Source of the DNA: a virus
Taxonomy: Duplodnaviria > Heunggongvirae > Uroviricota > Caudoviricetes
IMG/VR virus record: IMGVR_UViG_3300037400_001691
Coordinates: 1-64,000 of that record
DNA: 64,000 nt
Strand: one strand, 5' to 3'
Shown: positions 4,760 through 47,017 of the stretch, in pieces
Layout of the letters: every line of letters starts with the position of its first letter
Numbering within the stretch: position 1 is the stretch's first letter
Program-made: the position numbers and the translations under genes
Notes under the pieces: generated by a model
Database searches by the model: none
The model's input: the letters and a program-made list of their open reading frames with translations, nothing else
Told to the model about the DNA's origin: nothing

Positions 4760-4830
4760 AGGTCCTTAGTTTAACGGTAAAACATTAGTCTCCAAAACTA
4801 AAGTTATTGGTTCGATTCCATTAGGGTCTG
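4760..4830 (+). tRNA. tRNA-Trp(CCA)
   Basis: Acceptor AGGTCCT/AGGGTCT with 2 G-U pairs. D-arm GTTT-AACGGTA-AAAC. Anticodon stem TTAGT/ACTAA with loop CTCCAAA. T-loop TTCGATT. Confidence 0.6.
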
Positions 4831-5136: not shown

Positions 5137-5208
5137 TGAGGTATAGTATAACGGTTAGTACAGTAAACTGATAATTTACAAACCTAAGTTCAACTCTTAG
5201 TACTTCAA
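5137..5208 (+). tRNA. tRNA-Ile(GAU)
   Basis: Acceptor TGAGGTA/TACTTCA. D-arm GTAT-AACGGTTA-GTAC. Anticodon stem GTAAA/TTTAC with loop CTGATAA. T-arm CTAAG-TTCAACT-CTTAG. Confidence 0.6.
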
Positions 5209-5216
5209 CTAATATC

Positions 5217-5285
5217 GCGGATGCAGTGTGATGGTCGCATTTAAGGCTCATAACCTTAAGGAGTAGTTCGATTCTAACATTCGCA
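5217..5285 (+). tRNA. tRNA-Met-like (CAU) with truncated/imperfect T-stem (possible pseudo-tRNA)
   Basis: Acceptor GCGGATG/CATTCGC. Anticodon stem TAAGG/CCTTA with loop CTCATAA. The T-loop TTCGATT has only a 3-bp stem. Confidence 0.4.
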
Positions 5286-5306
5286 ACTTATCTTCATGTT
5301 TTTTAA

Positions 5307-5421
5307 AGGAAACTTCAGCAAACAATTCTCCCACAGAATGTCGTTAGTTCGAATCTAACTCCCTCTGATAGAGGGATAGCTCAATTGGTTCAGAGCGTCT
5401 GTTTTATAAAAAATGTTTCCT
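5307..5421 (+). ncRNA. permuted tRNA-like element U3 (Y-RNA/YrlA-like): 3' tRNA half then 5' tRNA half, enclosed by IR AGGAAAC/GTTTCCT
   Basis: At 5333-5367 lie ACAGA-ATGTC-GTTAG-TTCGAAT-CTAAC-TCCCTCT-G. After the linker AT, 5370-5402 hold AGAGGGA-TA-GCTC-AATTGGTTCA-GAGC-G-TCTGT. The acceptor pairs 7/7 and the anticodon stem 5/5 between the halves. The leader contains CAGCAAA. Confidence 0.6.
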
Positions 5422-5427
5422 GTTTAA

Positions 5428-5545
5428 AGAAAACTAACAGCAATATTTAAATCCGTATCCTGGTGGTAACATGGGTTCGATTCCCTTCTCTACTGTAACA
5501 GGTAGTGTCGTCTAGTGGTAGGACGCCTTTTTTGAATAGTTTTCT
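5428..5545 (+). ncRNA. permuted tRNA-like element U4 (Y-RNA/YrlA-like), IR AGAAAACTA/TAGTTTTCT
   Basis: Leader ACAGCAA, then T-arm ATGGG-TTCGATT-CCCTT, then an acceptor-like hairpin CTCTACTG-TAA-CAGGTAG, then a Glu-like D-arm TCGTCTAGTGGTAGGAC. The inverted-repeat arms show compensatory changes relative to U5 and U6. Confidence 0.55.
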
Positions 5546-5552
5546 GTAATAT

Positions 5553-5636
5553 CGCGGTATAGTCTAATGGTAAGATGCGAGGCTCATAACCTTGAGACAG
5601 TAAATGCTTGTGTGGGTTCGATTCCCACTACCGCAA
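5553..5636 (+). tRNA. atypical tRNA, anticodon CAU, C1-A72 mismatch, 17-nt variable region
   Basis: Acceptor CGCGGTA/TACCGCA. D-arm GTCT-AATGGTA-AGAT. Anticodon stem CGAGG/CCTTG with loop CTCATAA. T-arm GTGGG-TTCGATT-CCCAC. Confidence 0.45.
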
Positions 5637-5725
5637 GGACACATAATCAAAACCTCCACGTGGTGTGTCTGGGTAATGCTAATTTGATTATAATTTGTTT
5701 AATTTAATTTATTTAGAATTGAATC

Positions 5726-6376
5726 ATGGCTTATATTTATTGTATTACAAATTTAATTAATGGAAAATAGTATGTAGGTAAAACTACATATTCTATTACA
5801 AAAAGATTTAAAGAACATTGCAGAGATTGTTCAAAAGAATGTGAAGAAAAAAGACCTTTATATGCTGCTATGAATAAATACGGTATAGAAAATTTTGTTG
5901 CAAAAGAACTTATAGAATGTGAAATAGATGAACTTAGTTCTTATGAAATTATGTTTATAGAAAAACTTCAAACATATGGAAAAAATGGATATAATGCAAC
6001 AAAAGGAGGTGATGGTTCTATATTATTTGATTATAATGAAATAGTTAATTTATATAAACAAGGAAAATCTATGACAGAAGTAGCTAGTATAATACATTGT
6101 TGTATTGATACTGTTTCTAAAGTAGTTCATTTATATAATTTACCTATAAATAAAATTATATCAGGTAGTTGTAAACAACCAAAAATTGTAATACAATTAA
6201 ATAAAGAAACAAAAGAAGAAATACAAATTTTTAATTCAGTTGCAGACGCTTCTCATTGGTTAGTTGATAATGGATATGCTAAAACATATAACGGAGGTGT
6301 TAGACAAAAAATTTGTAATTGTTGTAATGGAAAATCAAAATCAGCTTATAATTTTAAATGGAAATATAAGGAATAA
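5726..6376 (+). CDS. GIY-YIG homing endonuclease (free-standing) with one in-frame TAG
   Basis: Translation MAYIYCITNLINGK*YVGKTTYSITKRFKEHCRD...AAMNKYGIENF... carries the GIY-YIG motif with a TAG at 5768-5770. The ORF is otherwise intact through to TAA at 6374-6376. Confidence 0.7.
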
Positions 6377-6394
6377 TTCCCACTACCGCAATAT

Positions 6395-6466
6395 GGGGCA
6401 TTAGTGTAGAGGTCAGCACGTCAGATTTTCATTCTGGAGACTCGAGTTCGAATCTCGGATGCCCTA
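6395..6466 (+). tRNA. tRNA-Glu(UUC)
   Basis: Acceptor GGGGCAT/ATGCCCT. D-arm GTGT-AGAGGTCA-GCAC. Anticodon stem TCAGA/TCTGG with loop TTTTCAT. T-arm TCGAG-TTCGAAT-CTCGG. Confidence 0.6.
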
Positions 6467-6588
6467 CAAAGGTTCTTGCTTTTTCATCCTATAACGAAAA
6501 AGCCGTAGCAATTCGTCAATGCCGTAGGAATCCGTTAACTCCAATAAACTAGTTTGTGTAACTACACTCTTTGAGTGCAGTTCTTTTT

Positions 6589-6659
6589 GAGTGCTTGTCC
6601 GAGCGGTTAGGTAACGCTCTGTAAAAGCGAATACATTGGTTCAAATCCAATAGCACTCT
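6589..6659 (+). tRNA. tRNA-Tyr(GUA), short class-I form
   Basis: Acceptor GAGTGCT/AGCACTC 7/7. Anticodon stem CGCT/AGCG with loop CTGTAAA. T-arm ATTGG-TTCAAAT-CCAAT. Confidence 0.5.
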
Positions 6660-6805
6660 CAACCTCAGCTGACAAGAGCTAGATCTTGTTGACTTTTAAA
6701 TTCCGGGGCAACATGAAACGGAATAGGTTGGCTTACCTTAAAAAAGTACACGCATCAAAGATGTAAGAGATCCTACTCAGTGAGGTTTTAGAGTAGGATT
6801 TACTT

Positions 6806-6888
6806 GCCGGAATGGGACAGCGGTCGACTCCACTTGATTTGTAATCATGCTCTGAAAAGACACGTCGGTTCGAATCCGACTTCCGGCT
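6806..6888 (+). tRNA. class-II-like tRNA (83 nt, long variable arm), anticodon loop TTTGTAA reads UGU
   Basis: Acceptor GCCGGAA/TTCCGGC 7/7. D-stem GGA/TCC with an 11-nt loop. Anticodon stem CTTGA/TCATG with one mismatch. Variable hairpin. T-arm GTCGG-TTCGAAT-CCGAC. Confidence 0.45.
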
Positions 6889-6909
6889 CAAACAATTAAT
6901 TTTAATAGT

Positions 6910-7458
6910 ATGGTAGATAATAACAAAATCATTCATTTGTTTATTACAAACAAATGTACACATAATTGTAAAAATTATTGTAATAAACAGTATGACATTG
7001 ACAAAATTTCTGTAATTACTGTAGATGAATTAAAATATGCAGATACAGTTTTACTAACAGGTGGTGAACCATTTATGTTAGTTGATTATCTTGAGGATTT
7101 TGCTAAGATGTTAAAGCATGGTTTCACAAATATTAAACAACTTTATGTTTATACTTATGGAGATTCTCTTTATAAATATTTACAGAAGGGTAAAACACTT
7201 GATGTATTTGATGGAGTAAATATAGCTCCTAAAAATAAATATGATGCAGAATGTACTAATAGCATTCTTAAATATAGAAAAGATGATATACTTTCTTTAG
7301 CATCAAGTCGTTTATATATCTTCCCAGAAATGAACGATTATATTCCTACTTACGATTTATATGGATATAGTAATTTTGAAGTTATTCATAGAAAATGGCA
7401 AGAGGAATTTGTACCAGATTCTGGAATATTTAGAAGACTTCCTATTTTATTTGAATAA
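6910..7458 (+). CDS. radical-SAM-like protein (CX3CX3C variant plus GGEP motif)
   Basis: Contains NKCTHNCKNYC and LLTGGEPF. Confidence 0.45.
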   Translation: MVDNNKIIHLFITNKCTHNCKNYCNKQYDIDKISVITVDELKYADTVLLTGGEPFMLVDYLEDFAKMLKHGFTNIKQLYVYTYGDSLYKYLQKGKTLDVFDGVNIAPKNKYDAECTNSILKYRKDDILSLASSRLYIFPEMNDYIPTYDLYGYSNFEVIHRKWQEEFVPDSGIFRRLPILFE

Positions 7459-7553
7459 GTGTTCATATTTGTATAATTAAAGGTTACATATAGCAAACTT
7501 ATTATCAGCAACAAACTTGTAATTTGTCACGCTTTACCTTGTAACCTGTATTT

Positions 7554-7626
7554 GTGACCTTAGCTCAGATGGTAGAGCTACGGATTTTTAATCCATCGGG
7601 CATGGGTTCAAGTCCCATAGGTCACA
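7554..7626 (+). tRNA. tRNA-Lys(UUU)
   Basis: Acceptor GTGACCT/AGGTCAC 7/7. D-arm GCTC-AGATGGTA-GAGC. Anticodon loop TTTTTAA. T-arm ATGGG-TTCAAGT-CCCAT. Confidence 0.65.
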
Positions 7627-7644
7627 CATTAAAACTATTAAAAT

Positions 7645-8685
7645 ATGAGTGAAAAGAATTGGACGTGTAAATATGCACATCATGGAAGACGTAATGGTGA
7701 AGGATTCCCACGTCATGCACTAAAGGATTTTGATGGTACTCATATTAGTATGGGTATGTTACGTTCTTATAAATCCAAATATTCTTGGGATTATCGAAAT
7801 TATCCAGCAATTACAAATAAGTATATTGTAGGTTTATTAGATAAATATGTTGGTAAATCTTATGATGATTTTAAACTTGCTTTTGATCAAAGGACTAAAA
7901 ATCTTTATAAGAAATATCCTATAGAATGGGGTAAGATTTCTGATTACTTACTTGATAAGCCACAAGAATATTATCGTCGTATTACATTTTATCTTGACAA
8001 AAACAATATAATTAGAAGATGCAAGAAATTAAAATATAGAACTTGGAAACTTCCAACTCTTAGTAAAACTCAAAAACATTTTAATGAAAGAGTTAAACTT
8101 CCAGAATGGGGACAAGTAAGAACTGATTCTCGATTTGACGTTGATCATGATTCTTTTTCTACTATGCCTGATAAGTTTAAAGAACCTTTATTACTTGGAA
8201 CATTTTATGTTATTGTAAATGATAAGATTTGTAAACTTCCTGTTTATACTTGTAATAAAGAAATATTTAAAACATATTCAACTTATCGTGATGAAAAATG
8301 GGATAGTAAAAAGAGACGTTATATTAAAACTCCATTTTGGAAATCAGATGCTTGGAATTGTAAACTTATAAATCCTGCTAAAAGAAAGAAAATAGCAGAA
8401 CAATGGATTCCTGTTGATGTTTACACATTACCAAAATTAAAACATGATTTTTGGTGTGAAGCTAAACATAAAGACAGATATAATCTGGAAGAACGTATTG
8501 AAAATCTTAATAATAAAATCAATATAACATTAAATTTTGATATTAGATTGGAATTAATTGGTGATAGAAATAAATTAATTCACCAACTTAATGAACTTCC
8601 AGAAACTGCTTGTTACAATCTTGGATATGGTCGATATTATCCATTTGTAAAAGTATCTGATTACGAAAAGTTTTGTAAAAAATAA
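7645..8685 (+). CDS. hypothetical protein (346 aa)
   Basis: Long ORF with no recognisable motif. Confidence 0.6.
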   Translation: MSEKNWTCKYAHHGRRNGEGFPRHALKDFDGTHISMGMLRSYKSKYSWDYRNYPAITNKYIVGLLDKYVGKSYDDFKLAFDQRTKNLYKKYPIEWGKISDYLLDKPQEYYRRITFYLDKNNIIRRCKKLKYRTWKLPTLSKTQKHFNERVKLPEWGQVRTDSRFDVDHDSFSTMPDKFKEPLLLGTFYVIVNDKICKLPVYTCNKEIFKTYSTYRDEKWDSKKRRYIKTPFWKSDAWNCKLINPAKRKKIAEQWIPVDVYTLPKLKHDFWCEAKHKDRYNLEERIENLNNKINITLNFDIRLELIGDRNKLIHQLNELPETACYNLGYGRYYPFVKVSDYEKFCKK

Positions 8686-8699
8686 TTTTAAGTGTTTAA

Positions 8700-8816
8700 A
8701 GAATACTAACAGCAACTTAATTAGCACTTGTAATGCCGTGTCGGAGGTTCGATTCCTCCTCTTACTTTTAATTGAGAAAGATAGTTTAGTGGCAAAACAC
8801 GTAATTATAGTATTCT
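8700..8816 (+). ncRNA. permuted tRNA-like element U5 (Y-RNA/YrlA-like), IR AGAATACTA/TAGTATTCT
   Basis: After the IR comes the ACAGCAAC bulge, then a second helix TTAATTA/TAATTA. The T-arm is GGAGG-TTCGATT-CCTCC. The 3' acceptor-like strand TCTTACT pairs 6/7 with the downstream AGAAAGA. A D-arm GTTT-AGTGGCA-AAAC follows. Confidence 0.55.
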
Positions 8817-8835
8817 GTTTTTAAAATTAATAAAA

Positions 8836-9030
8836 ATGAAAAAAGTAATTTTTTGGATTATTGTGAAAAATTGTATTATAGTTGTACTTGTTGCAATTAT
8901 TATTGGTTTAATGGTATATTATAATCATATGCGTGAGGAATATCAAAAGAAAGAAAATACATTAATAATGATGTATAATTCTAAATGTAATCACGCTCAA
9001 ATTGATTACAAACTATTAAGAAGTTATTAA
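8836..9030 (+). CDS. small membrane protein (1 TM)
   Basis: Hydrophobic segment IIVVLVAIIIGLMVYY. Confidence 0.45.
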   Translation: MKKVIFWIIVKNCIIVVLVAIIIGLMVYYNHMREEYQKKENTLIMMYNSKCNHAQIDYKLLRSY

Positions 9031-9032
9031 TA

Positions 9033-9206
9033 TGAAAAGTAATTTTGACGGATTATTAGCAATGATTATAATTGCTACAGCTTGTGTTTTAGTTACAATG
9101 AGTATTTTTTATAATAATATTGAGCAACGTATCGAAACACTTCAACAACAAAATGATTCTCTTAAACAAGAAATTGTTTTATTAAATAATTATTTATATG
9201 ATTAAA
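9033..9206 (+). CDS. small membrane/coiled-coil protein (57 aa)
   Basis: ORF MKSNFDGLLAMIIIATACVLVTMSIFYNN... with an ATG start. Confidence 0.4.
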
Positions 9207-9407
9207 TATGTTAAACCTGAAATACAATTAATAATATCAGATTCTGAAGATTTGATGATTAGTTCACAAGAACATTTACCAGATATTCAATCTGATGTTC
9301 ACGAATGTTGTCCTGCTTGTGATCCAAATGGTTATTGGCATTGCGATCATTCTAGAGCATGGGGTAACAAAGGATCACAATATGGAAAATGTGATAGATG
9401 TAATTAA
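9198..9407 (+). CDS. small Cys/His-rich protein
   Basis: Contains CCPACDPNGYWHCDH...CDRCN. Confidence 0.45.
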   Translation: MIKYVKPEIQLIISDSEDLMISSQEHLPDIQSDVHECCPACDPNGYWHCDHSRAWGNKGSQYGKCDRCN

Positions 9408-9411
9408 CATG

Positions 9412-9485
9412 GTGTCGTTAACTTAATTGGCTAAAGGCGGTGACTGTGAATCACTGAGATATCGGTTCGAATCCGTTGCGATACT
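9412..9485 (+). tRNA. tRNA-His(GUG)
   Basis: Acceptor GTGTCGT/GCGATAC with 2 G-U pairs, and a G at -1. Anticodon stem GGTGA/TCACT with loop CTGTGAA. T-loop TTCGAAT. Confidence 0.55.
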
Positions 9486-9503
9486 ACATCATATGTATTG
9501 TAA

Positions 9504-9643
9504 AGAATACTAACAGCAAAATTATTTAAAAACTGTTTTCTCCGTTGTGCGAAAGGCGCGTATAGGTTCGAATCCTATCATTAGGTAATTACTCCTAATG
9601 TGGTGGAATTGGTAGACACGATGGATTGTTTTAATAGTATTCT
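9504..9643 (+). ncRNA. permuted tRNA-like element U6 (Y-RNA/YrlA-like), IR AGAATACTA/TAGTATTCT
   Basis: Leader ACAGCAAA and a second helix TTTAAAAAC/GTTTTAA. T-arm TATAGG-TTCGAAT-CCTATC. Acceptor-like hairpin ATTAGG-TAATTACT-CCTAAT. D-arm GTG-GAATTGGTAGA-CAC. Confidence 0.55.
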
Positions 9644-9798
9644 GTTTTTGGAGGGTTGACAGAGTGATTTATTGCACCAGACTACTAATCTGGCAGTCGT
9701 CATTTTACAGGTTTACTTTGGCCATTTTTAGTAGTTATATTCCTACTTTGGCTTTGGGGTAAGTTTTGTACAAAAATTTCTAAAAAGATTTTGAAACA

Positions 9799-10017
9799 AT
9801 GATTATATTTTTTATATTTATCTATCTTTTAGGTTCAACAATTTTTGCTGGATATTTCTTCAGTAAATTTGAGCCAAATGATTTCATGGCTCAATCTTCT
9901 GCAATATTTTTAGGATTATTATGGATTTTTATAATTCCTTTAATAATAATGTGGTGTACATTATATTATCCTACAAAATATTTCGGTAATTTGTTTGATA
10001 AACTTAACAATAAATAA
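9799..10017 (+). CDS. small membrane protein (2 TM)
   Basis: Hydrophobic ORF. Confidence 0.45.
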   Translation: MIIFFIFIYLLGSTIFAGYFFSKFEPNDFMAQSSAIFLGLLWIFIIPLIIMWCTLYYPTKYFGNLFDKLNNK

Positions 10018-10023
10018 ATTTTA

Positions 10024-10108
10024 GGAGTTGCTGCTCGGATGGTGGACGGGCACCGGACTGTAAATCCGGCACATAGAAACACCGTAGGTTCGAATCCTAC
10101 CAACCCCA
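10024..10108 (+). tRNA. tRNA-Tyr(GUA), class II (bacterial type)
   Basis: Acceptor GGAGTTG/CAACCCC with one mismatch. Anticodon stem CCGGA/TCCGG with loop CTGTAAA. 14-nt variable arm. T-arm GTAGG-TTCGAAT-CCTAC. Confidence 0.6.
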
Positions 10109-10124
10109 CTAAAAATTTAACACT

Positions 10125-10691
10125 ATGAGTTATTATCATTATTTTAAATTAAAGGATGAAAGTAAATATCAGAAAGAAGATGCTTTAAGAGAACTTAAGT
10201 TTAAATATACATCTTCAGATAAAGATAAAATTCTATTAAAAGTAAGTATGATTAAAGCTTATTATGAAAATAAGATTGAAAATAATTATACTGATATTTT
10301 TTGTAGAGTTAAACTCTTAGCATCTGATATAGAAAAAAATTGTCTTCTTTCTTTAGTAAAAGAGATTAAAGAAAAAGGAGAAATAGAGAGAAATAGACCT
10401 CACGATGAATATGAAATGGAACAAATAGTAAATTCTTATGATGAAGATATAAATAGAATTATTGAAAATCTTCTTATATTATCTACTATTAGATTTGTTC
10501 CAGATAATGAATATTCAGACACTCCTAAAACGGAAATGGATTATTTGAGATATGAATATATTACTCAAATTAATTACGAATTAGAAACGTTAGAAGATAC
10601 AGTTCTCGATTACACTTTTTCTAAATTTGTATTAGAAGAATGTAATAGAGAAACAGAATCTGAAAGGAGTTCATCAGAAGACTTAGAATAA
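10125..10691 (+). CDS. hypothetical acidic protein (188 aa)
   Basis: ORF with no recognisable motif. Confidence 0.55.
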   Translation: MSYYHYFKLKDESKYQKEDALRELKFKYTSSDKDKILLKVSMIKAYYENKIENNYTDIFCRVKLLASDIEKNCLLSLVKEIKEKGEIERNRPHDEYEMEQIVNSYDEDINRIIENLLILSTIRFVPDNEYSDTPKTEMDYLRYEYITQINYELETLEDTVLDYTFSKFVLEECNRETESERSSSEDLE

Positions 10692-10705
10692 GTCTTCTGT
10701 AAATT

Positions 10706-10780
10706 AGGATCATAGTTCAGTTGGTCAAGAACATCTGGCTTACATCCAGAAGATCATCGGTTCGAATCCGATTGATCCTA
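10706..10780 (+). tRNA. tRNA-Val(UAC)
   Basis: Acceptor AGGATCA/TGATCCT 7/7. D-arm GTTC-AGTTGGTCAA-GAAC. Anticodon stem TCTGG/CCAGA with loop CTTACAT. T-arm ATCGG-TTCGAAT-CCGAT. Confidence 0.65.
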
Positions 10781-10787
10781 CAATTAT

Positions 10788-10874
10788 GCACCTATGGCGC
10801 AAATGGATGAGACGCACCACACTTAGAATGTGGAAACCGAAAGGTTTGTAAGAGTTCGACTCTCTTTAGGTGCA
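10788..10874 (+). tRNA. tRNA-Leu(UAG), class II
   Basis: Acceptor GCACCTA/TAGGTGC 7/7. Anticodon stem CCACA/TGTGG with loop CTTAGAA. Variable hairpin AAACC-GAAA-GGTTT. T-arm AAGAG-TTCGACT-CTCTT. Confidence 0.65.
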
Positions 10875-10876
10875 CT

Positions 10877-11098
10877 ATGAATATAATATATTGGAATCCT
10901 AAAGAACATAAAAGATATAAATTTTATACTTTATGTTTAAAGTTTCCATTTGGAAAGAAGTGGAAACAATATTGGTTTTGTAAAAGATGTAATTTTATAA
11001 ATAAACCTCTTTTAGACGCAATGAGAAATCTCCCATTAACAAAACCCAATTTTAAAGAAATTGAATTTGAAGATTTTACTTGGGAAATAATTAGATAA
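10877..11098 (+). CDS. hypothetical protein (73 aa)
   Basis: ORF with no recognisable motif. Confidence 0.45.
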   Translation: MNIIYWNPKEHKRYKFYTLCLKFPFGKKWKQYWFCKRCNFINKPLLDAMRNLPLTKPNFKEIEFEDFTWEIIR

Positions 11099-11100
11099 TT

Positions 11101-11514
11101 ATGAAGAAACTTATTTTATTATTGATGCTCTTATTATCTATAGGAGTATATGCACAGGTAACAACTCATGTTACACTTACATATTACCAACCTGTAGTGG
11201 AACAGTGTAATTCTGATCCATTAACAACTGCAGACGGTAGTAAAATAAATTTACATCATCTTAAACAAGGGAAAATTAAATGGTGTGCAATCAGCAGAGA
11301 TTTATTATATCTTTTCCCGAAAGATGAACCAAAACGTATTTACATTGAGGGATTTGGAGTTTATGAAGTTCGTGATGTAATGAATAAAAGATTTCATCAT
11401 CGAGTAGATATTCTCATTCATCCCAAAAATAGTGTAAGAGTTAAATTAGATAGAGTTAAAATTAAAATTTTGAGTAGTCACAGAAATGTGAATCGTAACC
11501 ACAAGAAACATTAG
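11101..11514 (+). CDS. secreted 3D-domain-like (cell-wall-binding/lytic transglycosylase-like) protein
   Basis: Signal peptide MKKLILLLMLLLSIGVYAQ. The TYYQ...QC...DPLTTADGS...IEGFGVYEVRD pattern resembles 3D-domain proteins. The ORF ends with TAG. Confidence 0.45.
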   Translation: MKKLILLLMLLLSIGVYAQVTTHVTLTYYQPVVEQCNSDPLTTADGSKINLHHLKQGKIKWCAISRDLLYLFPKDEPKRIYIEGFGVYEVRDVMNKRFHHRVDILIHPKNSVRVKLDRVKIKILSSHRNVNRNHKKH

Positions 11515-11796
11515 CACGTTTGCCCAAGACATTAATTATCTGCACAATCGTAGTTGATGGCTAACAGACTTGGAGACCATCGTATTGGTACAGAGTTATC
11601 CCACTCTCGGAGTATAAGGGAACCCAAGTTTACCACTACTTTATTAATATATGAAGCTAACATAGTATATTAAATAAAGGTGAAAGACTATAAAGGCGCA
11701 CTATTGTCACAATAGATGAAAATCTGGCGGTAAACTTATTAATTTTTATTTATAATTATATATAAAAGGTTGTACGATACCTTAAATCGTACATTT

Positions 11797-11870
11797 GGGC
11801 TTTGTGGTGTAACTGGCTAACACACCTCCCTTGCAAGGAGGAGTTTAGGGTTCAAATCCCTCATCGTCCA
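11797..11870 (+). tRNA. tRNA-Ala(UGC)-like with imperfect acceptor (G3-U70 present)
   Basis: Anticodon stem CCTCC/GGAGG is perfect, with loop CTTGCAA. T-loop TTCAAAT. The acceptor GGGCTTT/ATCGTCC has two mismatches. Confidence 0.45.
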
Positions 11871-11961
11871 CTTTTGTTTTTTTCATTTGCATATATTTTT
11901 CCCAATGACCTTTTAATAAGGTTGTTGGGGTTTTTGTTAAGTAACTAATAATTTTTACAAA

Positions 11962-12192
11962 ATGACTAAAAAAGATATATTAAGAGGAGCAGGAATACTC
12001 AGAAAGGAGCAACCTTGCTTAAGGAAAGGACAAGCAGTTTTTAATTATGTAGATATGCATCCAGAACTTTTCAAAAATGCTGCACGTATATCTCAGTTTA
12101 ATTATGGAATTGATTGTTTCTATAATGATGATATAATTGATCAATTTATTGATCAAGTTCTTGAAATATTAAACAATGATTTTATAGACTAA
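11962..12192 (+). CDS. hypothetical protein (76 aa)
   Basis: ORF with no recognisable motif. Confidence 0.45.
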   Translation: MTKKDILRGAGILRKEQPCLRKGQAVFNYVDMHPELFKNAARISQFNYGIDCFYNDDIIDQFIDQVLEILNNDFID

Positions 12193-12319
12193 TGTTATGA
12201 CCTTTGGACAAGCAATAGAAGAACTTATTCAAAACGAGAAATTTCGACATTTGTTTTCTCCTAAATTATATTATAATTATCTTATTGGTGATTGAAATAT
12301 ATTAAATAATTTTCAATAA

Positions 12320-12394
12320 AAGACGCATGATGACCAAGTGGCTATGGTGACAGGTAACGTTCCCAACGATGGTTCGAATCCATCCTTGCGTCTT
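12320..12394 (+). ncRNA. tRNA-like element: 8-bp terminal stem AAGACGCA/TGCGTCTT, D-arm-like CCA-AGTGGCTA-TGG and canonical T-arm GATGG-TTCGAAT-CCATC, but no canonical anticodon arm
   Basis: Hand fold. Confidence 0.35.
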
Positions 12395-12954
12395 AATTTG
12401 GGGGTATTTGGATTTGATTGCTAAGAGAAGCAAAGAAATCACGCAAAGGCAGTTGGAAAGACAACAAATAAAATTTAAACGGAAATAACACAGTTACATT
12501 CCGTATCGCTGCTTAATTGAATTAGATTAAGTACGATACCCGGGAAACACAGGATACTTACCGAGGAACAGAAATAGTATTCATCGCTGGCATCGGCAGT
12601 AATTAAACGAGCAAAAGTTTTATTAGTTTTCACAAAACTAATTGGTGGAGCTAACATTCAGTTAGCCTAAAGAAGAAAACTTTTAAAAATTGAAAAGCGT
12701 GTACAAATTTCGATGATATTTTAGTAAGACGAGGGTTTAATAGTTGGACCAGCTATAAAGTGATTTATAGTTAAAAACATCGGATGAATTCAGGGAACGC
12801 TAAAAAATAAAGCTCAAGATAAGCTTTATTTCATGCTAATCCTGAGCTAAACATAGAGTACACTCTATGAAAGTGCAACGACTATTGGAGAACTACAGTG
12901 TTCTTAATTACCAACTTGAGCGTCCGACATCTCATTAAGAGATGATGATATAGT

Positions 12955-13518
12955 CTAATCTTCTATGAAAGTAGAAGTATAGGAAGAAATCTGTTTTAAA
13001 AATTTTTTAGTTTCTAAATCAGACATTTGTTGTTTCATTAAATTAATAGGAGTTGATACAAATTGAACATTACCTTTTATGTAACCTTTAGATGAATCAA
13101 TTCTATCTAAAGATGCTCGATAAATTATATTTAAATCATTTATATTATTATCTTCTGGTAATGTTAATTTAAGATTAGTATAAGGACATATTCCATTTTG
13201 TTGTTCCCATATTAATTTTAAATATTCTAAATCTATATTTATTTCTTTAGATCTACGTTTTATACATCTCATTGTATATCTAAAAGGACTAAATTCATCT
13301 CTTCTATTTCCAGAATGTTGTGAAATATCATATTTATCATTTGATAATGATAAATTTTTATTAGATTTTCCAGAACAAATTCTAGAACAATAATTTTTTC
13401 TTCCTAATTTAACATTTCTATTATATTCGGAAAGTGGTTTTTGAAATTCTTTACCACAACAATCACAAATTAATGTGATTAATTTTCGATTTTTACAATA
13501 ATCTTTTAAAATTTCCAT
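12955..13518 (-). CDS. HNH homing endonuclease (Zn-finger N-terminus, SLDRIDSSKGYIKGNVQFV HNH motif)
   Basis: Minus-strand ORF of 187 aa with CxxC pairs and the HNH signature. Confidence 0.65.
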   Translation of the reverse strand: MEILKDYCKNRKLITLICDCCGKEFQKPLSEYNRNVKLGRKNYCSRICSGKSNKNLSLSNDKYDISQHSGNRRDEFSPFRYTMRCIKRRSKEINIDLEYLKLIWEQQNGICPYTNLKLTLPEDNNINDLNIIYRASLDRIDSSKGYIKGNVQFVSTPINLMKQQMSDLETKKFLKQISSYTSTFIED

Positions 13519-13737
13519 AATTTTTTATTTTATTTAATATATGTATATATAAGAAATTTATGTGGATACTTATAATTTTTATTGTTAATAAATGTTAATT
13601 TTGCGACTCCCTCTACCTCCACAAGAAAACGATAATTATCTATAATGTTTAATTTTTAATTACGGACGTAAGGAGCGTCCTTCTTAAATTACATATAATT
13701 ACCATCAAATTATCGTTTTCTTTTTAATTTAAAAATT

Positions 13738-13953
13738 ATGTTAGATATTTTATCATTTATCGCAATGGCATTATCATTGCTTGGAAACATTCTTTTAGTA
13801 AAGAAAATCATTTGGGTATTCCCAATTTGGATTATAGCGAATGTAACATGGATTGTTGTGAATTTTATGAGTACTCCTAATATTTCACAAATAATTATGT
13901 TTGTAGTTTATACCATACTTGCTATGATAAGTTGGTATCAATGGAAAAAATAA
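13738..13953 (+). CDS. small membrane protein (2 TM)
   Basis: Hydrophobic ORF. Confidence 0.45.
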   Translation: MLDILSFIAMALSLLGNILLVKKIIWVFPIWIIANVTWIVVNFMSTPNISQIIMFVVYTILAMISWYQWKK

Positions 13954-14035
13954 AAATAATGCTCCCATAGTCAATTAGATACTTATAAATCTAAAAATAA
14001 AAACGGAGATAAATCTTATTATCGTTATCACAAAT

Positions 14036-14119
14036 GGGAGGTGGGCAGGGTTGAATAATGCACCGGTCTTCTAAACCGGAGTCTTTTAGACATGATGGGT
14101 TTGAATCCCATACCTCCTA
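14036..14119 (+). tRNA. class-II (Ser-like) tRNA with anticodon loop CTTCTAA, reading UCU
   Basis: Acceptor GGGAGGT/ACCTCCT. Anticodon stem CCGGT/ACCGG is perfect and almost identical to the E. coli tRNA-Ser anticodon arm. Variable hairpin GTCT-TTT-AGAC. T-arm ATGGG-TTTGAAT-CCCAT. Confidence 0.5.
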
Positions 14120-14297
14120 CATTTTTATTGATGTAGGTTCGATTCCTACTGGGAGTACTATTTTAGGTAGTGATTTAACATTTATTAACAAATTTGTTGA
14201 TTTACATCAATTTAAATTTTTTTGAAAATAAAAATCAAATTATTATATTTGATTAGAAATTTTAGATAAACAGTTTATTAATTAAAAATTTAAAAAA

Positions 14298-14473
14298 ATG
14301 AAAAAGTTGTTATTTGCATTTGTTATGTGCATGAGTATTGTACTTGTAAGTTGCGGTTCTGGCGCAGTAACATCAGTAAGTGATAATGATTCTATCGACA
14401 CAGTATCTTATGATACTATTGATACCATTGTTCTTGATACAGTGGGTGTTGATACAACCATTTGTATTGATTA
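14298..14473 (+). CDS. small lipoprotein (58 aa)
   Basis: Signal peptide with lipobox MKKLLFAFVMCMSIVLVSCGSG. Confidence 0.45.
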
Positions 14474-14643
14474 ATTTATTAAAAGAAAGGATTTATTATG
14501 AAGAAATTGTGTAATCTAGTGAAAGCAGGAATTAAATTTTATGGAAGAAATCTCAAAAACTTTACGAAGTTAATCGTTATTCCTGAAGGAGCTTGCTATG
14601 CACAGTAATTCCTGTACAATGGTAGTTTAATACTACCAACAAT

Positions 14644-14712
14644 GTCCCATGGTGTAATGGTAGCACATCAGATTTTGGTTCTGACGGTCAAGGTTCGAAT
14701 CCTTGTGGGACA
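14644..14712 (+). tRNA. tRNA-Gln(UUG)
   Basis: Acceptor GTCCCAT/GTGGGAC. Anticodon stem TCAGA/TCTGA with loop TTTTGGT. T-arm AAGG-TTCGAAT-CCTT. Confidence 0.55.
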
Positions 14713-14862
14713 ACAATTAACTTTTAAAAAGAAAGGAGTTTAATTATGAAAAAAATCAAAGCTTTATTTATTAGTGCTATTACTATCGCTGCTTGCATGT
14801 ATTCATTTTACATCGTAGCATAGTAATGCTTTTTTAATCGAATTTTATTAACTTTAAATATA

Positions 14863-23802: not shown

Positions 23803-24702
23803 ATGAGTATAATCGGAGATGCACTAACACAAGCAATCGACGCAAAGAGTAATGATGTAAATTCATACGTTTGGAAAGGTCCAAAGAAGGATATTAACGG
23901 ACGTAAAGTACAAGACGAAATTAAGTTAATGGACATGAGTGTAGAGCAGTTACAAGCTGCTTTTGACCATTGTGCTTCTATGCTTTATAGTAATGATAAG
24001 GAAAATCCAGGAAGATATGTCCTTCTCAAAATTATTAAGGAGCAGAGAATGAAATGCAACGCAGAACTCTTTATGCGTTATCAGGAGAATACCTATCATA
24101 CATCTGATAGAGCAAAGTATCCTAGATTTCATTATCAAGAGGATTTACGTAAGTTCCTTCGTGATAATGAAGTACAGCTTAAAGAAATGTATGGAGTAGA
24201 AAACTTAAAAGAACTTCCTATGGGAATACTTAACAATATCCCATCAGAGTTTTCTAATATTCCTATTAATACAGTAATTGATGCTTGCCTTGATTCACTT
24301 GGTACTTTCAATAAAAAGCATATTACTTTAAACTTTATTACTAAGCTTCCTCTTTGGTTTACACAGCAAGAAATGAAAGATCTTACTGAGAGAACTGCTG
24401 ATGGAAAAATACGTAATAGACTTGAGGTAATTAAAGAAAGACTCGGAATCCGTAACAACATTCGTCTTATTATAGATGATGAAAATGCAAAACTTAATTA
24501 CACTGAATTTCGTGCAGCAGTTCAGTTAAAGAATAAGAATTATTCTCAACTTACAACTGATCAGCTCGTACTTCTTCAAAATAAACTTTTATTTTATCTT
24601 GAGGATGAAGTAGACGTTCATATTAAACAATGGGAATCTCGAATCAAACAGATTAATGAAGTTTGTAAACTTAAAGGATACAGACTTCAGGTAAATGGCT
24701 GA
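23803..24702 (+). CDS. hypothetical protein (299 aa)
   Basis: ORF. Confidence 0.55.
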   Translation: MSIIGDALTQAIDAKSNDVNSYVWKGPKKDINGRKVQDEIKLMDMSVEQLQAAFDHCASMLYSNDKENPGRYVLLKIIKEQRMKCNAELFMRYQENTYHTSDRAKYPRFHYQEDLRKFLRDNEVQLKEMYGVENLKELPMGILNNIPSEFSNIPINTVIDACLDSLGTFNKKHITLNFITKLPLWFTQQEMKDLTERTADGKIRNRLEVIKERLGIRNNIRLIIDDENAKLNYTEFRAAVQLKNKNYSQLTTDQLVLLQNKLLFYLEDEVDVHIKQWESRIKQINEVCKLKGYRLQVNG

Positions 24703-24805
24703 TTTATTTGGTCCCATTTCAAGGGATGAACGTCAAGCACAATGTATTGAGAATTGGGTAAAGCATAAAGGAAAAGCTACTGTTGTTGGTGCAACAGGTT
24801 TTGGT
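24695..24805 (+). CDS. SF2 (DExH) helicase, exon 1 (ends inside Walker A ...GATGFG)
   Basis: Translation is MADLFGPISRDERQAQCIENWVKHKGKATVVGATGFG. Joined to exon 2 it gives GATGFG-KT, a complete Walker A. Confidence 0.7.
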
Positions 24806-25961
24806 TTCCAAAATAAAATTTTTGTTTGAAATTTTGAAACTTGTTAAATTAGTTATATTATTAATTTAACAGTTAAAATTATGGATATAGAAAAATTGGC
24901 ATTTGAATTTCAAACAACTAGTATTTCTCTTACTAAATTAGCAGAAAGAGAACATACAGCAAGACAAACTCTTGCAAAAAAATTTAAAGAATTAGGTATT
25001 GAGATAATTAATAAACAAAATAAAACTAAATTTAATGAACATATCTTTGATTCTATAGATACAGAGAAAAAAGCATACTGGTTAGGTTTTATTTTTGCTG
25101 ATGGAAGTATTAGAGAACAAATTGAAGGTAAAAAAGTTCCTTATACTTTTGAATTAAGTTTAAAAGGAGATGATATAGAACATCTTAAAAAATTTAATTC
25201 ATTTATGGAATATCAAGGAGATAATGTTAAATTAGGAAAAAGTAAATGCAAAAATAAAGAGTTTTCTAGATGTAGATGGACTATTACAAATAAACATTTA
25301 TGGACTATTCTTAACAATTTAGGTTGCACATCTAATAAATCTTTAACATTACAATTTCCTAATGAATCAATATTTAGTTCAAAAGATTTAATTCCACACT
25401 TTATTAAAGGTTATTTTGATGGTGATGGATGTTTTACACGTCATGTATATACACATATTGTTAGTCCTGTTATTTCTATATTAGGAACTCCAGAATTTTT
25501 AGATAAAATTGACGAATATTCTAATATAGAATCTATAAGACGACATGACAAAAGACATTCTGAAAAAACTTATATTTTAGAATTTAATAAAGAAAATGGA
25601 ATTAAATTTATTAATTATATTTATTCTAATTGTAATATATATTTAGATAGGAAATATAAATTATATAATTTTTTTAAAAACGGAAGCCGTTCTGTAGAGG
25701 AATTTACAGAATTACAATCGGGCAATATCGGGGAAAAGCTGAAGCTTGAGTCGAGAGACTATATGTATGAAAATCCCGAGATAAACTTAGAAACTAAAGA
25801 ATCTGAGTCATCGTACAGCGTAGGAGGTGAAACTGTATAACAGACTATAATCCTTCCAAGAGTGTCCGATACCCCAACTGAAATAAGTGGGTAAAAAGGT
25901 ACGCGGGGCTTACTTGTAATAAGTAAGAAATACGAATAAAAAATCGTATGATAACAATCCG
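24806..25961 (+). mobile_element. group I intron in helicase gene, carrying LAGLIDADG endonuclease ORF
   Basis: The exon ends in U and the intron ends in G. The in-frame read-through hits a stop. The host Walker A motif is split precisely. The 3' core shares blocks with the dut intron. Confidence 0.65.
24881..25840 (+). CDS. LAGLIDADG homing endonuclease (intron-encoded)
   Basis: Two LAGLIDADG motifs: YWLGFIFADGSI and KGYFDGDGCF. Confidence 0.75.
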   Translation: MDIEKLAFEFQTTSISLTKLAEREHTARQTLAKKFKELGIEIINKQNKTKFNEHIFDSIDTEKKAYWLGFIFADGSIREQIEGKKVPYTFELSLKGDDIEHLKKFNSFMEYQGDNVKLGKSKCKNKEFSRCRWTITNKHLWTILNNLGCTSNKSLTLQFPNESIFSSKDLIPHFIKGYFDGDGCFTRHVYTHIVSPVISILGTPEFLDKIDEYSNIESIRRHDKRHSEKTYILEFNKENGIKFINYIYSNCNIYLDRKYKLYNFFKNGSRSVEEFTELQSGNIGEKLKLESRDYMYENPEINLETKESESSYSVGGETV

Positions 25962-45510: not shown

Positions 45511-45934
45511 GAAAATCCCAGGAATTACAAGTATGCCAATAAGGGTTTATGAACTTCTTAAACTCAAATTGACACCTGAGAATGAACTTGATGAAGATTT
45601 AGTTAAATATTCAAACATACTTGATGAAATTAAAAAGTCTAAATCTGGATGGATTAAGATTAAAAAAATTTCTGATAATGGTGGATATTTAACTAAAAAT
45701 GAATCAGAAAGTGGTTGGTTTGCAGTATTTGCAAAAGGAATGTCTTTATATATAGGAGATGGTTCACATTATTATTATACTTCTAATATTGTAGACATAG
45801 ATTGGGATAAAAAGTTATTTTTAACATTAAATTCTATTTATTCATTTGAAATAACAGAATATGATGCTAAAGATATGGTAGATGCTATCGACGAACTAAT
45901 CTCAAATAGAAATGTTAAACATCAAAATAATTAA
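45494..45934 (+). CDS. hypothetical protein (146 aa)
   Basis: ORF. Confidence 0.5.
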
Positions 45935-46163
45935 TAAATCTGAATACGAAGCTCCAAAATACGAAACAGAACAAAGTGCTGGAGTAGATCTTCGTGCTAA
46001 TATTGATAAAGAAATAATTCTTTATCCTATGGAAAGAAAATTAATTCCAACAGGAATTTTTATTGAACTTCCTAAAGGTTATGAAGCACAAATACGTCCT
46101 CGTAGTGGTCTTGCAGCAAAATATGGTATTACTGTTCTTAATTCTCCTGGCACTATAGACGCT
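45912..46163 (+). CDS. dut: dUTPase, exon 1
   Basis: Motifs [16 protein letters not shown] and NSPGTID(A). The in-frame read-through then leaves the dUTPase motif and hits a stop. Confidence 0.7.
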
Positions 46164-46385
46164 AGCCGAAATAATTGGCGTCTTTAAATCGGGCAATATC
46201 GGTGGAGGCTGTGATGTTAATACCGAGATAAATTCAGAGATTGCGCAAGGCTCTGAATCATCGTACAGCGTAGAGAGTGAATAAATATAATCTCTCCAAG
46301 AGTGTCCGACATTGAAAATGTACGCGGGACTTAAGTGAAAAAAAACTTAAGAAGTTAGGATAAAAAGCCTAATGATAACAAATCG
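46164..46385 (+). mobile_element. ORF-less small group I intron in dut (222 nt)
   Basis: Exon 1 ends in U and the intron ends in G. The joined exons give GTIDA-DYRGEI. The intron shares blocks (AATCGGGCAATATCGG, TCATCGTACAGCGTAG, TCCAAGAGTGTCCGA, GTACGCGGG, ATGATAACAA) with the helicase intron 3' region. Confidence 0.65.
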
Positions 46386-46571
46386 GATTATAGAGGAGAA
46401 ATTATGGTATTACTTATTAATCTTAATAATGAATATTTTTCAGTTAAACCAGGTATGCGTATAGCACAAATGATTATTGCACGTCATGAACAAGCTAATT
46501 TCTTAGATTTTGATGTTCTTAGTGAAACAGAACGTGGTGATGGAGGTTTTGGACATTCTGGTAATTTCTAA
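46386..46571 (+). CDS. dut: dUTPase, exon 2
   Basis: Translation [31 protein letters not shown]...[12 protein letters not shown] covers dUTPase motifs III-V. Confidence 0.7.
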
Positions 46572-47017
46572 TGAAAATATTTAAAAAATTATTATCTTAT
46601 ATTTCTTACGGAATCCGATATTTAAAAACATTCGGGTTTCGTAAGAAATTAAGATTCGTTTCTAGAGGCGAAAGACTTATTTATCATTATCTAAAAGATT
46701 GTGGTGATAATATTAAATTTAAACCTCAATATAAAATCTCAATACCTGAAGGAATTAATAAAACAAATCGTGCTTATATTGATTTTATGGTTTGGGTAGG
46801 AAATAAACGTTATGCTATTGAATATAATGGTATACAACATTATGAATTTATACCTTATTTTCATAGAACATATGACGATTTCTATTTTCAAACGAGAAGA
46901 GATTTAGCGGTAGAAAGTTATTGTTTTGATAAAGGAATAACTTTTGTAGAAATTCCTTATTATTGGTCTGATACACGAATAATTCATAAATTAAAAGAAA
47001 TAACACATGAAGCTTGA
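46571..47017 (+). CDS. hypothetical protein (148 aa)
   Basis: ORF. Confidence 0.5.
   Translation: MKIFKKLLSYISYGIRYLKTFGFRKKLRFVSRGERLIYHYLKDCGDNIKFKPQYKISIPEGINKTNRAYIDFMVWVGNKRYAIEYNGIQHYEFIPYFHRTYDDFYFQTRRDLAVESYCFDKGITFVEIPYYWSDTRIIHKLKEITHEA

Follow-up and report, generated by a model that had tools for sequence, protein, structure and literature searches.

Group I introns of the IA type in T4 (td, nrdB and nrdD), Staphylococcus phage Twort (orf142-I2), Bacillus phage SPO1 and the Bastillevirinae lie in conserved motifs of phage protein genes, and the intron family described here has the same habit. The two groups share a P1 with a U.G pair, P10, the P3-P8 and P4-P6 domains, P7.1, P9.0 with a terminal G and a tail of the AACA..G type. 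They differ in that our family has GCGUA/UACGC in P7 and GAAAAUG in J8/7, not the R/S elements carried by the intron at 12728 of the window (the whole 64,000-nt stretch of viral DNA analysed), and in having a single P7.1 where the phage IA introns have P7.1 and P7.2. The compact, ORF-less Azoarcus tRNA-Ile intron (IC3), which is 205 nt long, has a complete active site, retains both P2 and P8 and forms tetraloop contacts between L2 and P8 and between L9 and P5. Such contacts, including the one between L2 and P8, are cited for other group I introns (PMC2813881). In phage IA introns the endonuclease ORFs occupy loops, from which they can extend into the core (PMC3984707, PMC11878797).

In setting, a close parallel is provided by the introns of crAss-like gut phages, since our family also occurs in gut viral contigs and has a member in the ATPase gene of the crAss-like phage cr6_1. 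In the excerpts of Yutin et al. (2021; PMC7886860) drawn on here, such introns are dense in the Delta and Zeta groups and were detected via endonuclease domains, so that ORF-less copies would have escaped; those excerpts do not name dut as an interrupted gene. Two further systems concern mobility: trans-homing of defective introns, as with I-TevIII/mobE of T4 (PMC2790892), and collaborative homing, as with the psbA intron of S-PM2 and F-CphI (PMC3984707).

The dut gene of the window is split by a 222-nt insert that resembles the Azoarcus intron in being compact, ORF-less and about 200 nt long, and differs from it in lacking P2 and P8 and in having an IA-type P7.1. The insert is very probably a real group I intron of the ordinary kind with an unusually reduced core. 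The elements of the locus are:

45912-46163, +, dut exon 1, 84 codons, ends NSPGTIDA (ORF list, splice translation, Pfam/PDB, L301 junction)
46163, +, 5' splice site, U46163, the final base of dut exon 1 (junction exact in the intron-free contig L301)
46164-46385, +, 222-nt ORF-less insert assigned to group I, without P2 and without P8 (family HMM, pairs, covariation, L301)
46386-46571, +, dut exon 2, starts DYRGEI, 61 codons and stop (ORF list, translation, Pfam, PDB)
46571-47017, +, 148-aa nuclease-domain ORF, overlapping the dut stop (TAATG); context, outside the intron

The insert ends AAATCG and separates NSPGTIDA from DYRGEI. The original prediction that these two segments together form dUTPase motif III is borne out: with the insert excised, the joined exons encode a 145-aa protein that matches the trimeric dUTPase profile PF00692 with 114 bits over profile positions 3-129 of 129, and this protein aligns without a gap across the junction with the solved dUTPases 8y1q and 7n56 (aligned partner LNAPGTIDADYRGEV). 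The insertion point lies within motif III, between Ala84 (GCU) and Asp85 (GAU); once the insert is removed the motif is whole, and both exons are intact with all motifs (Pfam and PDB alignment). An in-frame TAA at 46185-46187, 22 nt into the insert, excludes an intein. No second dUTPase was found within the window. In the protein collection, exon 1 is listed as a separate 91-aa 'dUTP pyrophosphatase'. Megablast with 25 kb and the dut region found no close relative among GenBank phages and returned only short intron-core matches, and a limited literature check turned up no previously described intron in a dUTPase gene.

The insert belongs to a family found in at least 120 IMG/VR viral contigs and in 42 GenBank phage records, where it splits terminases, helicases, ATPases, tape-measure genes and dUTPase. 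The structure modelled for the dut copy is as follows:

46157-46163, +, P1 5' strand, exon AGACGCU, pairs with GGCGUCU 46177-46183, giving U46163.G46177
46171-46183, +, internal guide sequence, AUAAUU (P10) then GGCGUCU (P1)
46189-46194, +, P3 5' strand UCGGGC, partner GUCCGA 46304-46309
46195-198, +, J3/4 AAUA, outside the P4-P6 range
46199-46262, +, P4-P6 domain, family covariation supporting P4, P5, P6 and P6a
46199-202/46223-226, +, P4
46207-209/46216-218, +, P5
46227-229/46260-262, +, P6
46233-239/46251-257, +, P6a
46263-265, +, J6/7 GUA, outside the P4-P6 range
46266-46272, +, P7 5' strand C[A]GCGUA, C46266 pairing with G46326, A46267 bulged
46273-46296, +, P7.1 hairpin with conserved loop UGAAUAAAUAUAAU, an IA-type insertion between P7 and P3'
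46304-46309, +, P3'
46310-46314, +, linker CAUUG, 5 nt, in the position of P8
46315-46320, +, J8/7 AAAAUG
46321-46326, +, P7' UACGCG
46328-46385, +, 3' domain with P9.0, P9, P9.1, tail GAUAACAAAUC and terminal G46385, the helices supported by family covariation
G46328 A46329 with U46383 C46384, +, P9.0, 2 bp
46330-336/46345-351, +, P9
46354-359/46368-373, +, P9.1 with loop AUAAAAAG

In the family alignment (A3, 41 sequences) 96.0% of cells in the modelled helices are paired, a share that falls to 33-40% when partner columns are shifted by 1-3 positions. Changes in both partners are seen for 47 of the 59 pairs; none of 500 shuffles reached the observed value on any of the pairing or covariation measures. 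The supported structure includes the P3/P7 pseudoknot and a bulged P7 with invariant GCGUA/UACGC. All six pairs of P3 covary (99.2% of cells paired), as do four of the five pairs of P7.1, which is a single hairpin in most copies and has a nested second hairpin in some. Within P7 all 41 sequences have the same five inner pairs, and the outer pair covaries (GC 22, AU 13, CG 6). P9.0 with a terminal G is present in 72 of 85 unique copies (null mean 41, null maximum 49) and is built from six pair types. The dut copy itself keeps every invariant column of the alignment, and each of the 49 modelled pairs that can be scored outside P2 is a standard pair. Its guide sequence combines a 7-bp P1 carrying the U.G pair with a directly adjoining 6-bp P10, in which AUAAUU (46171-46176) pairs with GAUUAU (46386-46391) of exon 2, an arrangement reached in none of 100000 shuffles. 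A U.G pair is also found at the protein-dictated junctions of the helicase, cr6_1 ATPase and L050 tape-measure introns.

The insert therefore combines the U.G pair in P1, P10, a terminal G, the P3/P7 pseudoknot topology and a bulged P7, as in group I, and P7.1 supplies the extra hairpin between P7 and P3' that marks subgroup IA; we call it IA-like. Features of group II (5' GUGYG, domain V, several hundred nt) are absent from the insert, which starts AGCCG, is 222 nt long and has no Rfam match. The ORF-less group I intron of the original prediction is thus upheld on architecture and covariation, although the Rfam search proposed with it drew a blank: whether at the gathering score or at E<=10, RF00028 (Intron_gpI) matched neither intron of the family in the window (dut and helicase) nor L002 or L003. 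Two of these negatives are P8-containing relatives. RF00028 misses the family because its core sequence is unlike the R/S elements, and this model has been reported to miss phage group I variants (PMC11878797); with Rfam silent, the group I identity rests on architecture and covariation. The suggestion that 222 nt is near the lower size limit of group I introns goes too far, since the insert is small but the Azoarcus intron is smaller.

Splicing would follow the usual two steps. The guide sequence 5'-AUAAUU/GGCGUCU-3' would pair with the last seven bases of exon 1 (P1), putting U46163.G46177 at the cleavage site, and with the first six bases of exon 2 (P10). G46268-C46325 of P7 is the candidate guanosine-binding pair by analogy with G264-C311, the guanosine-binding pair of the Tetrahymena intron. 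Free guanosine held there would attack after U46163; the terminal G46385, placed by the 2-bp P9.0, would next occupy the guanosine site, and the 3'-OH of exon 1 would attack after G46385. Ligation of the exons would give an mRNA for the normal 145-aa dUTPase.

The family HMM finds only two copies in the window, the dut copy (E=4e-59) and one in an SF2 helicase gene, where the intron sits inside Walker A:

24695-24799, +, helicase exon 1, ends VVGATG
24800-25961, +, helicase intron, 1162 nt, in the SF2 helicase gene (HMM E=1.8e-39)
24881-25840, +, LAGLIDADG ORF of the helicase intron, in the P1 loop, reading through the core into the P7.1 loop
25682-25688, +, guide sequence GGAAGCC
25962 onwards, +, helicase exon 2, starts KTRVGT

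Pfam identifies ResIII/Helicase_C in the spliced helicase product and LAGLIDADG_1 in the intron ORF. The original prediction held that the two introns share sequence blocks and are of one lineage. Six blocks are shared, each occurring exactly twice in the window (46187/25716, 46223/25776, 46258/25808, 46295/25855, 46320/25899 and 46372/25948), where shuffles lead one to expect about 0.1 matches per block; pairwise alignment confirms the homology with 77% column identity, the variable stretches between blocks being covarying hairpins. A common lineage holds at the level of the family, to which both introns belong by sequence, but the helicase copy is not the nearest relative. The dut intron has closer relatives in unrelated contigs: its P3-P7' core is 90% identical to that of L020 and 87% to that of L019, in both cases more than to that of the helicase copy, and alignment A3 puts its identity at 83% with L020 and at 74.5% with the helicase copy. 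Nothing indicates that either copy in the window derived from the other inside this genome. L050, an intron of a tape-measure gene, has the same P1 as the dut intron without being particularly near to it in the core; the P1 match is coincidence or convergence of guide sequences. Two other candidates for dut introns were set aside. The annotated 'dUTPase' of Staphylococcus phage Rosita is actually an ORF of HNH type, located in the P5 loop of a structural-gene intron. In the relatives L250-L262 the dut match is longer by 150 nt through an in-frame 50-aa insertion, the motif III site being empty.

P8 has been listed as part of the catalytic domain (PMC3984707), and in the dut copy its place between P3' and J8/7 is taken by the five nucleotides CAUUG. 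The spacing from CAAGAG to AAATGTACGC is 13 nt here; among the other 120 copies listed for a first sample it is never below 21 nt, and each of them has a P8 hairpin of at least 4-5 bp. The P8 of L019, for example, has 5 bp (CACCC-UAA-GGGUG). That sample gave the impression that the loss was unique to dut, an impression overturned by a second scan, which revealed another P8-less lineage of 19 contigs (14 variants) splitting the terminase large subunit between AARG and LGKS (Walker A), with the frame open across the junction; in L162 this terminase intron is 254 nt long. L202, which also appeared to lack P8, is a false positive, CAAGAG lying inside its P8. A GNRA L2 is present in 32 of the 41 family members and absent from both P8-less lineages; where present, the GNRA-capped P2 probably docks on P8. 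A full-text literature search for natural group I introns without P8 returned nothing relevant, which is weak evidence of novelty.

We consider it reasonably probable that the dut intron, its HNH-bearing sibling described below and, separately, the terminase lineage are naturally minimised but still active group I ribozymes that have dispensed with P8 and the GNRA-capped P2, with J8/7 tied to P3 by 4-5 nt. Counted against our favoured explanation are the missing P8, the silence of Rfam and a feature of the minimum-free-energy fold of the dut intron, in which the local hairpin ACAUU-GAA-AAUGU would sequester J8/7. A reduced core of this kind might instead need a protein, either a maturase-like endonuclease or a host RNA chaperone, in order to fold. 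The dut copy does lack the L2(GNRA)/P8 peripheral clamp found in most family members, such sites are bound by proteins in bI3, and the P5 of the dut copy has two G.U pairs. Yet the 222-nt form persists in several samples without any intron ORF, P9, P9.1 and the conserved P9.1 loop remain as possible stabilisers, and nothing in the data identifies a cofactor; we regard dependence on a protein as unlikely.

The dut site occurs in three states. L301 (contig Ga0435270_000917, JGI sample 3300039247) is 99.9% identical to the window over 3.9 kb and lacks exactly 46164-46385; its sequence may come from the DNA of an allele without the intron and not from a spliced transcript. An ORF-less form of 222-224 nt is present in several samples (L304, L305 and L306). 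In the sibling phages L302 and L303, with flanks 97.8% identical, a 922-nt form occupies the dut site and carries a 240-aa HNH ORF in the P1 loop on the same P2-less, P8-less core. The CAUUG linker is common to L302, L304, L305 and L306. The original prediction left it open whether the intron had lost or never gained its endonuclease ORF; the absence of the ORF stands, and L302/L303 narrow the choice, loss being favoured because the 700-nt difference between the two forms is bounded by GAAAA repeats. The ORF-less intron is probably a deletion derivative of the HNH-bearing form, the reduced dut copy most likely having arisen when 700 nt were deleted from the P1 loop of the 922-nt version. A copy of this kind could not home alone, and a mixed infection supplying the HNH enzyme could let it enter empty sites. 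With empty, endonuclease-bearing and ORF-less states in near-identical genomes, and a nuclease gene adjoining, the site resembles a homing life cycle.

The adjoining 148-aa ORF raises the idea that it and the ORF-less intron form a collaborative-homing pair (PMC3984707), in which the nuclease would cut the intron-free dut site GGCACTATAGACGCTGATTATAGAGG and the intron would protect its own genome. The ORF matches homing and intron-encoded endonuclease families (PHROG 9084 'homing endonuclease', 1e-14; also PHROGs 7140 and 559; by tblastn, a nuclease encoded in an intron of Staphylococcus phage 812). The closely related L019 intron itself codes for a homologous domain, and the start of the 148-aa ORF overlaps the dut stop codon. 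The syntenic relatives of the dut region are 145-193-kb gut viral contigs, and the more distant among them have neither intron nor ORF. The ORF is, however, present in all three states of the site, next to intron-free dut (L301), the HNH-bearing intron (L302) and the ORF-less form (L304 and L306), so its presence is not linked to the state of the intron. This sets the locus apart from described collaborative pairs, and it led us to downgrade the idea. Moreover, the intron has an HNH enzyme of its own (L302), and the homologues of the 148-aa protein, 369-405 aa long, have N-terminal zinc-ribbon repeats that it is missing. We find such a partnership very unlikely.

Nor do we think it at all probable that the insert is a decayed, splicing-dead relic, the loss of P8, P2 and the ORF having inactivated the ribozyme and left dut a pseudogene. 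What speaks for decay is that P8 is absent here and present in the other 120 copies listed for the first sample, that a competing hairpin is predicted over J8/7, that the window holds no second dUTPase and that dUTPase may be dispensable. A dUTPase need not be essential to the phage, and selection for splicing would then be weaker than in terminase. But the P8-less core recurs in the HNH-bearing version and in at least four further samples and has a separate counterpart in terminase, no invariant position or helix is damaged, and both exons are intact. Within the dut-intron lineage (L304, L305 and L306), moreover, pairing is preserved by each of the five distinct substitutions that fall in helices (46208, 46235, 46354 and 46368), and the remaining differences are confined to loops and junctions.

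That the insert is no intron but a dispersed repeat or miniature mobile element in dut, a ribosome-bypassed stretch or an intein can practically be dismissed: Rfam is silent and the sequence recurs widely, but the reading frame meets a stop, P1, P10 and the terminal G fall exactly at the junction that the protein requires, the pseudoknotted structure covaries, copies in other genes likewise sit at junctions set by the protein, and between its flanks GCT and GAT the insert has neither terminal inverted repeats nor a target duplication.

As an ordinary group I intron with a reduced core, the dut insert bears on both the ribozyme and the phages that carry it. If the P8-less copies are active, P8 would be dispensable for group I catalysis in vivo, and a natural core smaller than the textbook P3-P9 domain would exist in a large gut-phage family unseen by the curated model. 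The two P8-less lineages, one of them in an essential gene (terminase), offer a natural experiment on the minimum size of a group I core. The family is invisible to Rfam, and its ORF-less copies leave genes called as fragments. Empty, HNH-bearing and ORF-less in near-identical phages, the dut site captures stages in the cycle by which homing introns of gut phages are gained, decay and are lost.

The gene dut, which encodes a dUTPase, lies in the window as two exons around a 222-nt insert:

45912-46163, dut exon 1, ending NSPGTIDA
46164-46385, dut intron; last base G46385, with P9.0 formed by GA (46328-29) and UC (46383-84)
46386-46571, dut exon 2, beginning DYRGEI

Past exon 1 the reading frame continues through seven insert codons to TAA at 46185-46187. 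The joined exons encode a 145-aa protein [Pfam dUTPase 114 bits, whole profile covered] that aligns with solved dUTPases gap-free at the junction (compared stretch LNAPGTIDADYRGEV), bearing out the original prediction of a dUTPase in two pieces. The sequence blocks that it described as shared with the helicase intron are also real; each of the six named blocks occurs exactly twice in 64 kb, with all second copies at 25716-25957 (chance expectation approximately 0.1 per block). The observation on dut is confirmed. The end of exon 1, AGACGCU, pairs with the guide GGCGUCU (46177-83) to give P1 with a U46163.G46177 pair, and AUAAUU, immediately upstream of the guide, pairs with the first six exon 2 bases (GAUUAU) as P10. 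A 7-bp P1 contiguous with a 6-bp P10 did not arise once when the first 25 intron bases were shuffled 100000 times. The copy has standard pairs at all 49 scorable positions of the family model and keeps every invariant family column. We regard it as nearly certain that the insert is a group I intron with these splice sites.

The Rfam search proposed earlier (Intron_gpI, RF00028) found no match at the dut or helicase insert, at the gathering score or at E ≤ 10, and it also misses two further family members that retain every helix; its single match in the window is at 12728-12977. Because phage variants can escape RF00028 and GISSD, as a survey of phage introns reports (PMC11878797), and because complete members are missed, the Rfam check is not decisive and comparative analysis was used instead. 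A blastn search with the 222 nt identified 42 GenBank phage records (Staphylococcus, Clostridioides, Listeria, Bacillus, crAss-like, Lak and one cyanophage), many adjoining HNH or LAGLIDADG genes or lying within terminase or polymerase genes, and a motif scan of IMG/VR placed the family in at least 120 contigs. From these matches 127 copies were taken, and the 41 distinct copies spanning the whole core were aligned. Compared with a published list of group I features (PMC3984707), the aligned sequences describe a textbook group I fold.

Order of elements in the intron family
5' part: guide sequence, P2, P3, J3/4 (AAAA or AAUA), P4, P5, P4'
Middle: P6, P6a, J6/7 (GUA), P7 5' strand, P7.1 with conserved loop
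Next: P3', P8, J8/7 (GAAAAUG), P7' strand
3' part: P9.0, P9, P9.1 (loop AUAAAAAG), tail GAUAACAA plus 3-5 nt, G

P2 is capped by a GNRA loop in 32 of the 41 copies. Standard pairs fill 96.0% of the cells of the modelled structure, but only 33-40% when the 3' partners are slid by 1-3 columns as a control. Both sides change in 47 of 59 pairs, and no shuffle out of 500 equalled any observed pairing measure. P3 and P7 cross, giving the group I pseudoknot. P7 comprises a covarying outer pair (G-C 22, A-U 13, C-G 6), one bulged nucleotide and an invariant GCGUA/UACGC, the first G-C pair of which is placed like the guanosine-binding pair of known introns. P9.0, in which J7/9 pairs with the dinucleotide that precedes the terminal G, forms in 72 of 85 unique copies with six pair types; with J7/9 permuted among sequences the mean is 41 and the maximum 49.

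The second member in the window lies in a helicase gene:

24695-24799, helicase exon 1, ending VVGATG
24881-25840, LAGLIDADG ORF of the helicase intron, in the P1 loop
from 25962, helicase exon 2, beginning KTRVGT

These exon ends place a 1162-nt intron inside Walker A, and the joined exons encode ResIII and Helicase_C domains. The guide GGAAGCC (25682-88) pairs with GGU/UUU (slashes mark insertion points). From the P1 loop the ORF continues across the guide sequence, P2, P3-P6 and P7, with its stop codon in the P7.1 loop. Both P2 and P8 are present in this intron, P5 is long, and the core is 74.5% identical to that of the dut intron in the family alignment, lower than several unrelated contigs. 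The 'same intron lineage' originally proposed thus stands in the sense of one family; the two are members of it and appear not to be copies of each other.

In many members the insertion point falls in the Walker A (P-loop) codons of an ATPase gene [helicase GATG/KT, ATPase GTG/KT in the crAss-like phage cr6_1, terminase AARG/LGKS], with sites at window 24799/24800, near 631 in contig L003, at 6310 in contig L162 and at many loci of the IMG/VR scan. UUGCC or GCCGC recurs in their guides and the 3' exons often begin with AAR, which points to repeated targeting of GGU/AAR-type sites by the family. The core is read through in one frame by three unrelated endonuclease types, LAGLIDADG, HNH and a PD-(D/E)XK-like/DUF2726-like domain (window 25716-25840, L302 2960-3071 and L019 2850-2973; peptide ..SGNIG...EIN.E...SESSYSV...), and the conserved UAA in the P7.1 loop terminates at least two of these ORFs, LAGLIDADG and HNH; the family core keeps one frame open. 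In Staphylococcus phage Rosita (PP197657.1; L001 844-1503) a CDS labelled 'dUTPase' encodes an HNH-type endonuclease; it occupies the P5 loop of a family intron that interrupts a head/tail gene, and the label is probably a misannotation. A copy with an internal deletion of the P5 3' strand and P4' (contig L016, 9035-9289) may be a truly defective intron.

The dut intron lacks P2, P1 being followed by UUAAA and then P3. Its P3'-J8/7 linker is five nucleotides, CAUUG, at the position where, among the matches listed, all other 120 copies of the first sample have a P8 hairpin; the spacing from CAAGAG to AAATGTACGC is 13 nt, compared with at least 21 nt in the other listed copies. A scan for short spacing revealed a second P8-less set of 19 contigs (14 distinct sequences; linkers CACG, CGCG, CGAG or UGUGA), which are 254-255-nt ORF-less introns in the terminase large subunit, splitting Walker A at AARG/LGKS with the reading frame open across the junction. 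Their P2 loops are not GNRA and the dut intron has no P2, so the GNRA L2 is gone in both P8-less lineages; this fits the joint loss of an L2-P8 tetraloop-receptor clamp such as other group I introns have (PMC2813881). The copies nearest to the dut intron in the P3-P7' core contain P8 (L020 90%, L019 87%), and the terminase set is at 83% with a different 3' domain, which suggests that the two P8 losses were probably independent.

Near-identical contigs, located by exact-sequence look-up of the spliced protein and the exon 1 product, show the dut site in three states:

Empty site: L301 (JGI 3300039247), 99.9% identical to the window over 3.9 kb with 3 mismatches, exactly 46164-46385 absent
ORF-less, P2-less, P8-less intron: L304, L305, L306 and the Logan contig L124, four further samples
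922-nt intron with HNH ORF: sibling phages L302 and L303, same site, flanks 97.8% identical

No junction base is repeated, so the ends of the missing segment in L301 can be placed unambiguously. This contig represents an intron-free allele or a spliced transcript; under either reading the element is discrete, with its ends as predicted. L124 spans the 5' part of the intron only, and in the complete copies (L304-L306) the only differences are a few substitutions and 1-2 A in the P9 loop. The five distinct helix substitutions in the ORF-less lineage all keep pairing (the changes are G.U to A-U at 46208 and 46354; C-G to U.G at 46235; G-C to G.U at 46368), the remainder being in loops or junctions. 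The 922-nt intron starts with AGCCGAAA, as does the 222-nt form, carries 700 extra nucleotides with a 240-aa HNH_3 ORF in the P1 loop, and resumes with AUAAUUGGCGUCU..., the same P8-less core and the same 3' end. GAAAA flanks the extra segment on both sides, consistent with the 222-nt form having arisen by deletion, and we infer that the direction was ORF loss, not gain.

No intron occupies the dut site in 59 more distant IMG/VR dut loci or in the 30 best GenBank phage matches, and the site is empty (ACTATTGACGCT/GATTATAGAGG) in syntenic 145-193-kb gut viral contigs. In the latter (L250-L262, 1501-2082) the dUTPase has an in-frame insertion of approximately 50 aa near the N-terminus and the motif III site is intron-free. 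L124 (Logan SRR12668996), an independent assembly 100% identical to the window, ends at the position matching window 46273, the exact end of a 16-nt block TCATCGTACAGCGTAG common to the dut and helicase introns; the two intron copies appear to fragment assemblies. A 919-nt contig, L307 (ENA ERZ27280187), has the permuted order dut exon 2, 45-aa ORF, dut exon 1 and probably reflects chimeric or circularised assembly of the dut region.

A 148-aa ORF (46571-47017) overlaps the dut stop codon. It resembles families labelled as homing or intron-encoded endonucleases (PHROG among them) and a homologous domain is encoded within the related L019 intron, which suggested a partnership with the dut intron in collaborative homing (PMC3984707); however, the ORF accompanies empty, short and long dut alleles alike and lacks the zinc-ribbon repeats of longer homologues, making such a pair unlikely. 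Sources label this ORF, in a 116-member 90% cluster, 'signal peptidase I', a name that looks wrong given the PHROG matches.

Elsewhere in the window, the Intron_gpI match at 12728-12977 (+ strand, 96 bits) has canonical R/S elements; it is in a tRNA-rich region, where no + strand ORF stands out as its host. On the opposite strand, a Cys-pair-rich ORF of 187 aa (12955-13518), possibly for a nuclease, overlaps its 3' end. The surrounding dense tRNA array (2558-14714) has 16 Rfam tRNA matches, to which ARAGORN adds tRNA-Arg 14036-14120.

The most likely reading of the dut insert is that ordinary group I splicing, directed by the P1/P10 guide, would restore a functional dut mRNA. The intron very probably splices in vivo; splicing without protein help is less certain. 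The main caveats are the absent P8, a predicted local hairpin, ACAUU-GAA-AAUGU, in which J8/7 could be trapped, and a dUTPase that may be non-essential. The intron would be immobile alone, although the HNH enzyme of sibling phages could mobilise it. Group I introns are well known in phages, crAss-like gut phages included (PMC7886860). New here are dut as the host gene, a widespread intron family missed by the curated model, and a P8-less, P2-less core that has persisted across several samples as well as in a form that bears an endonuclease.
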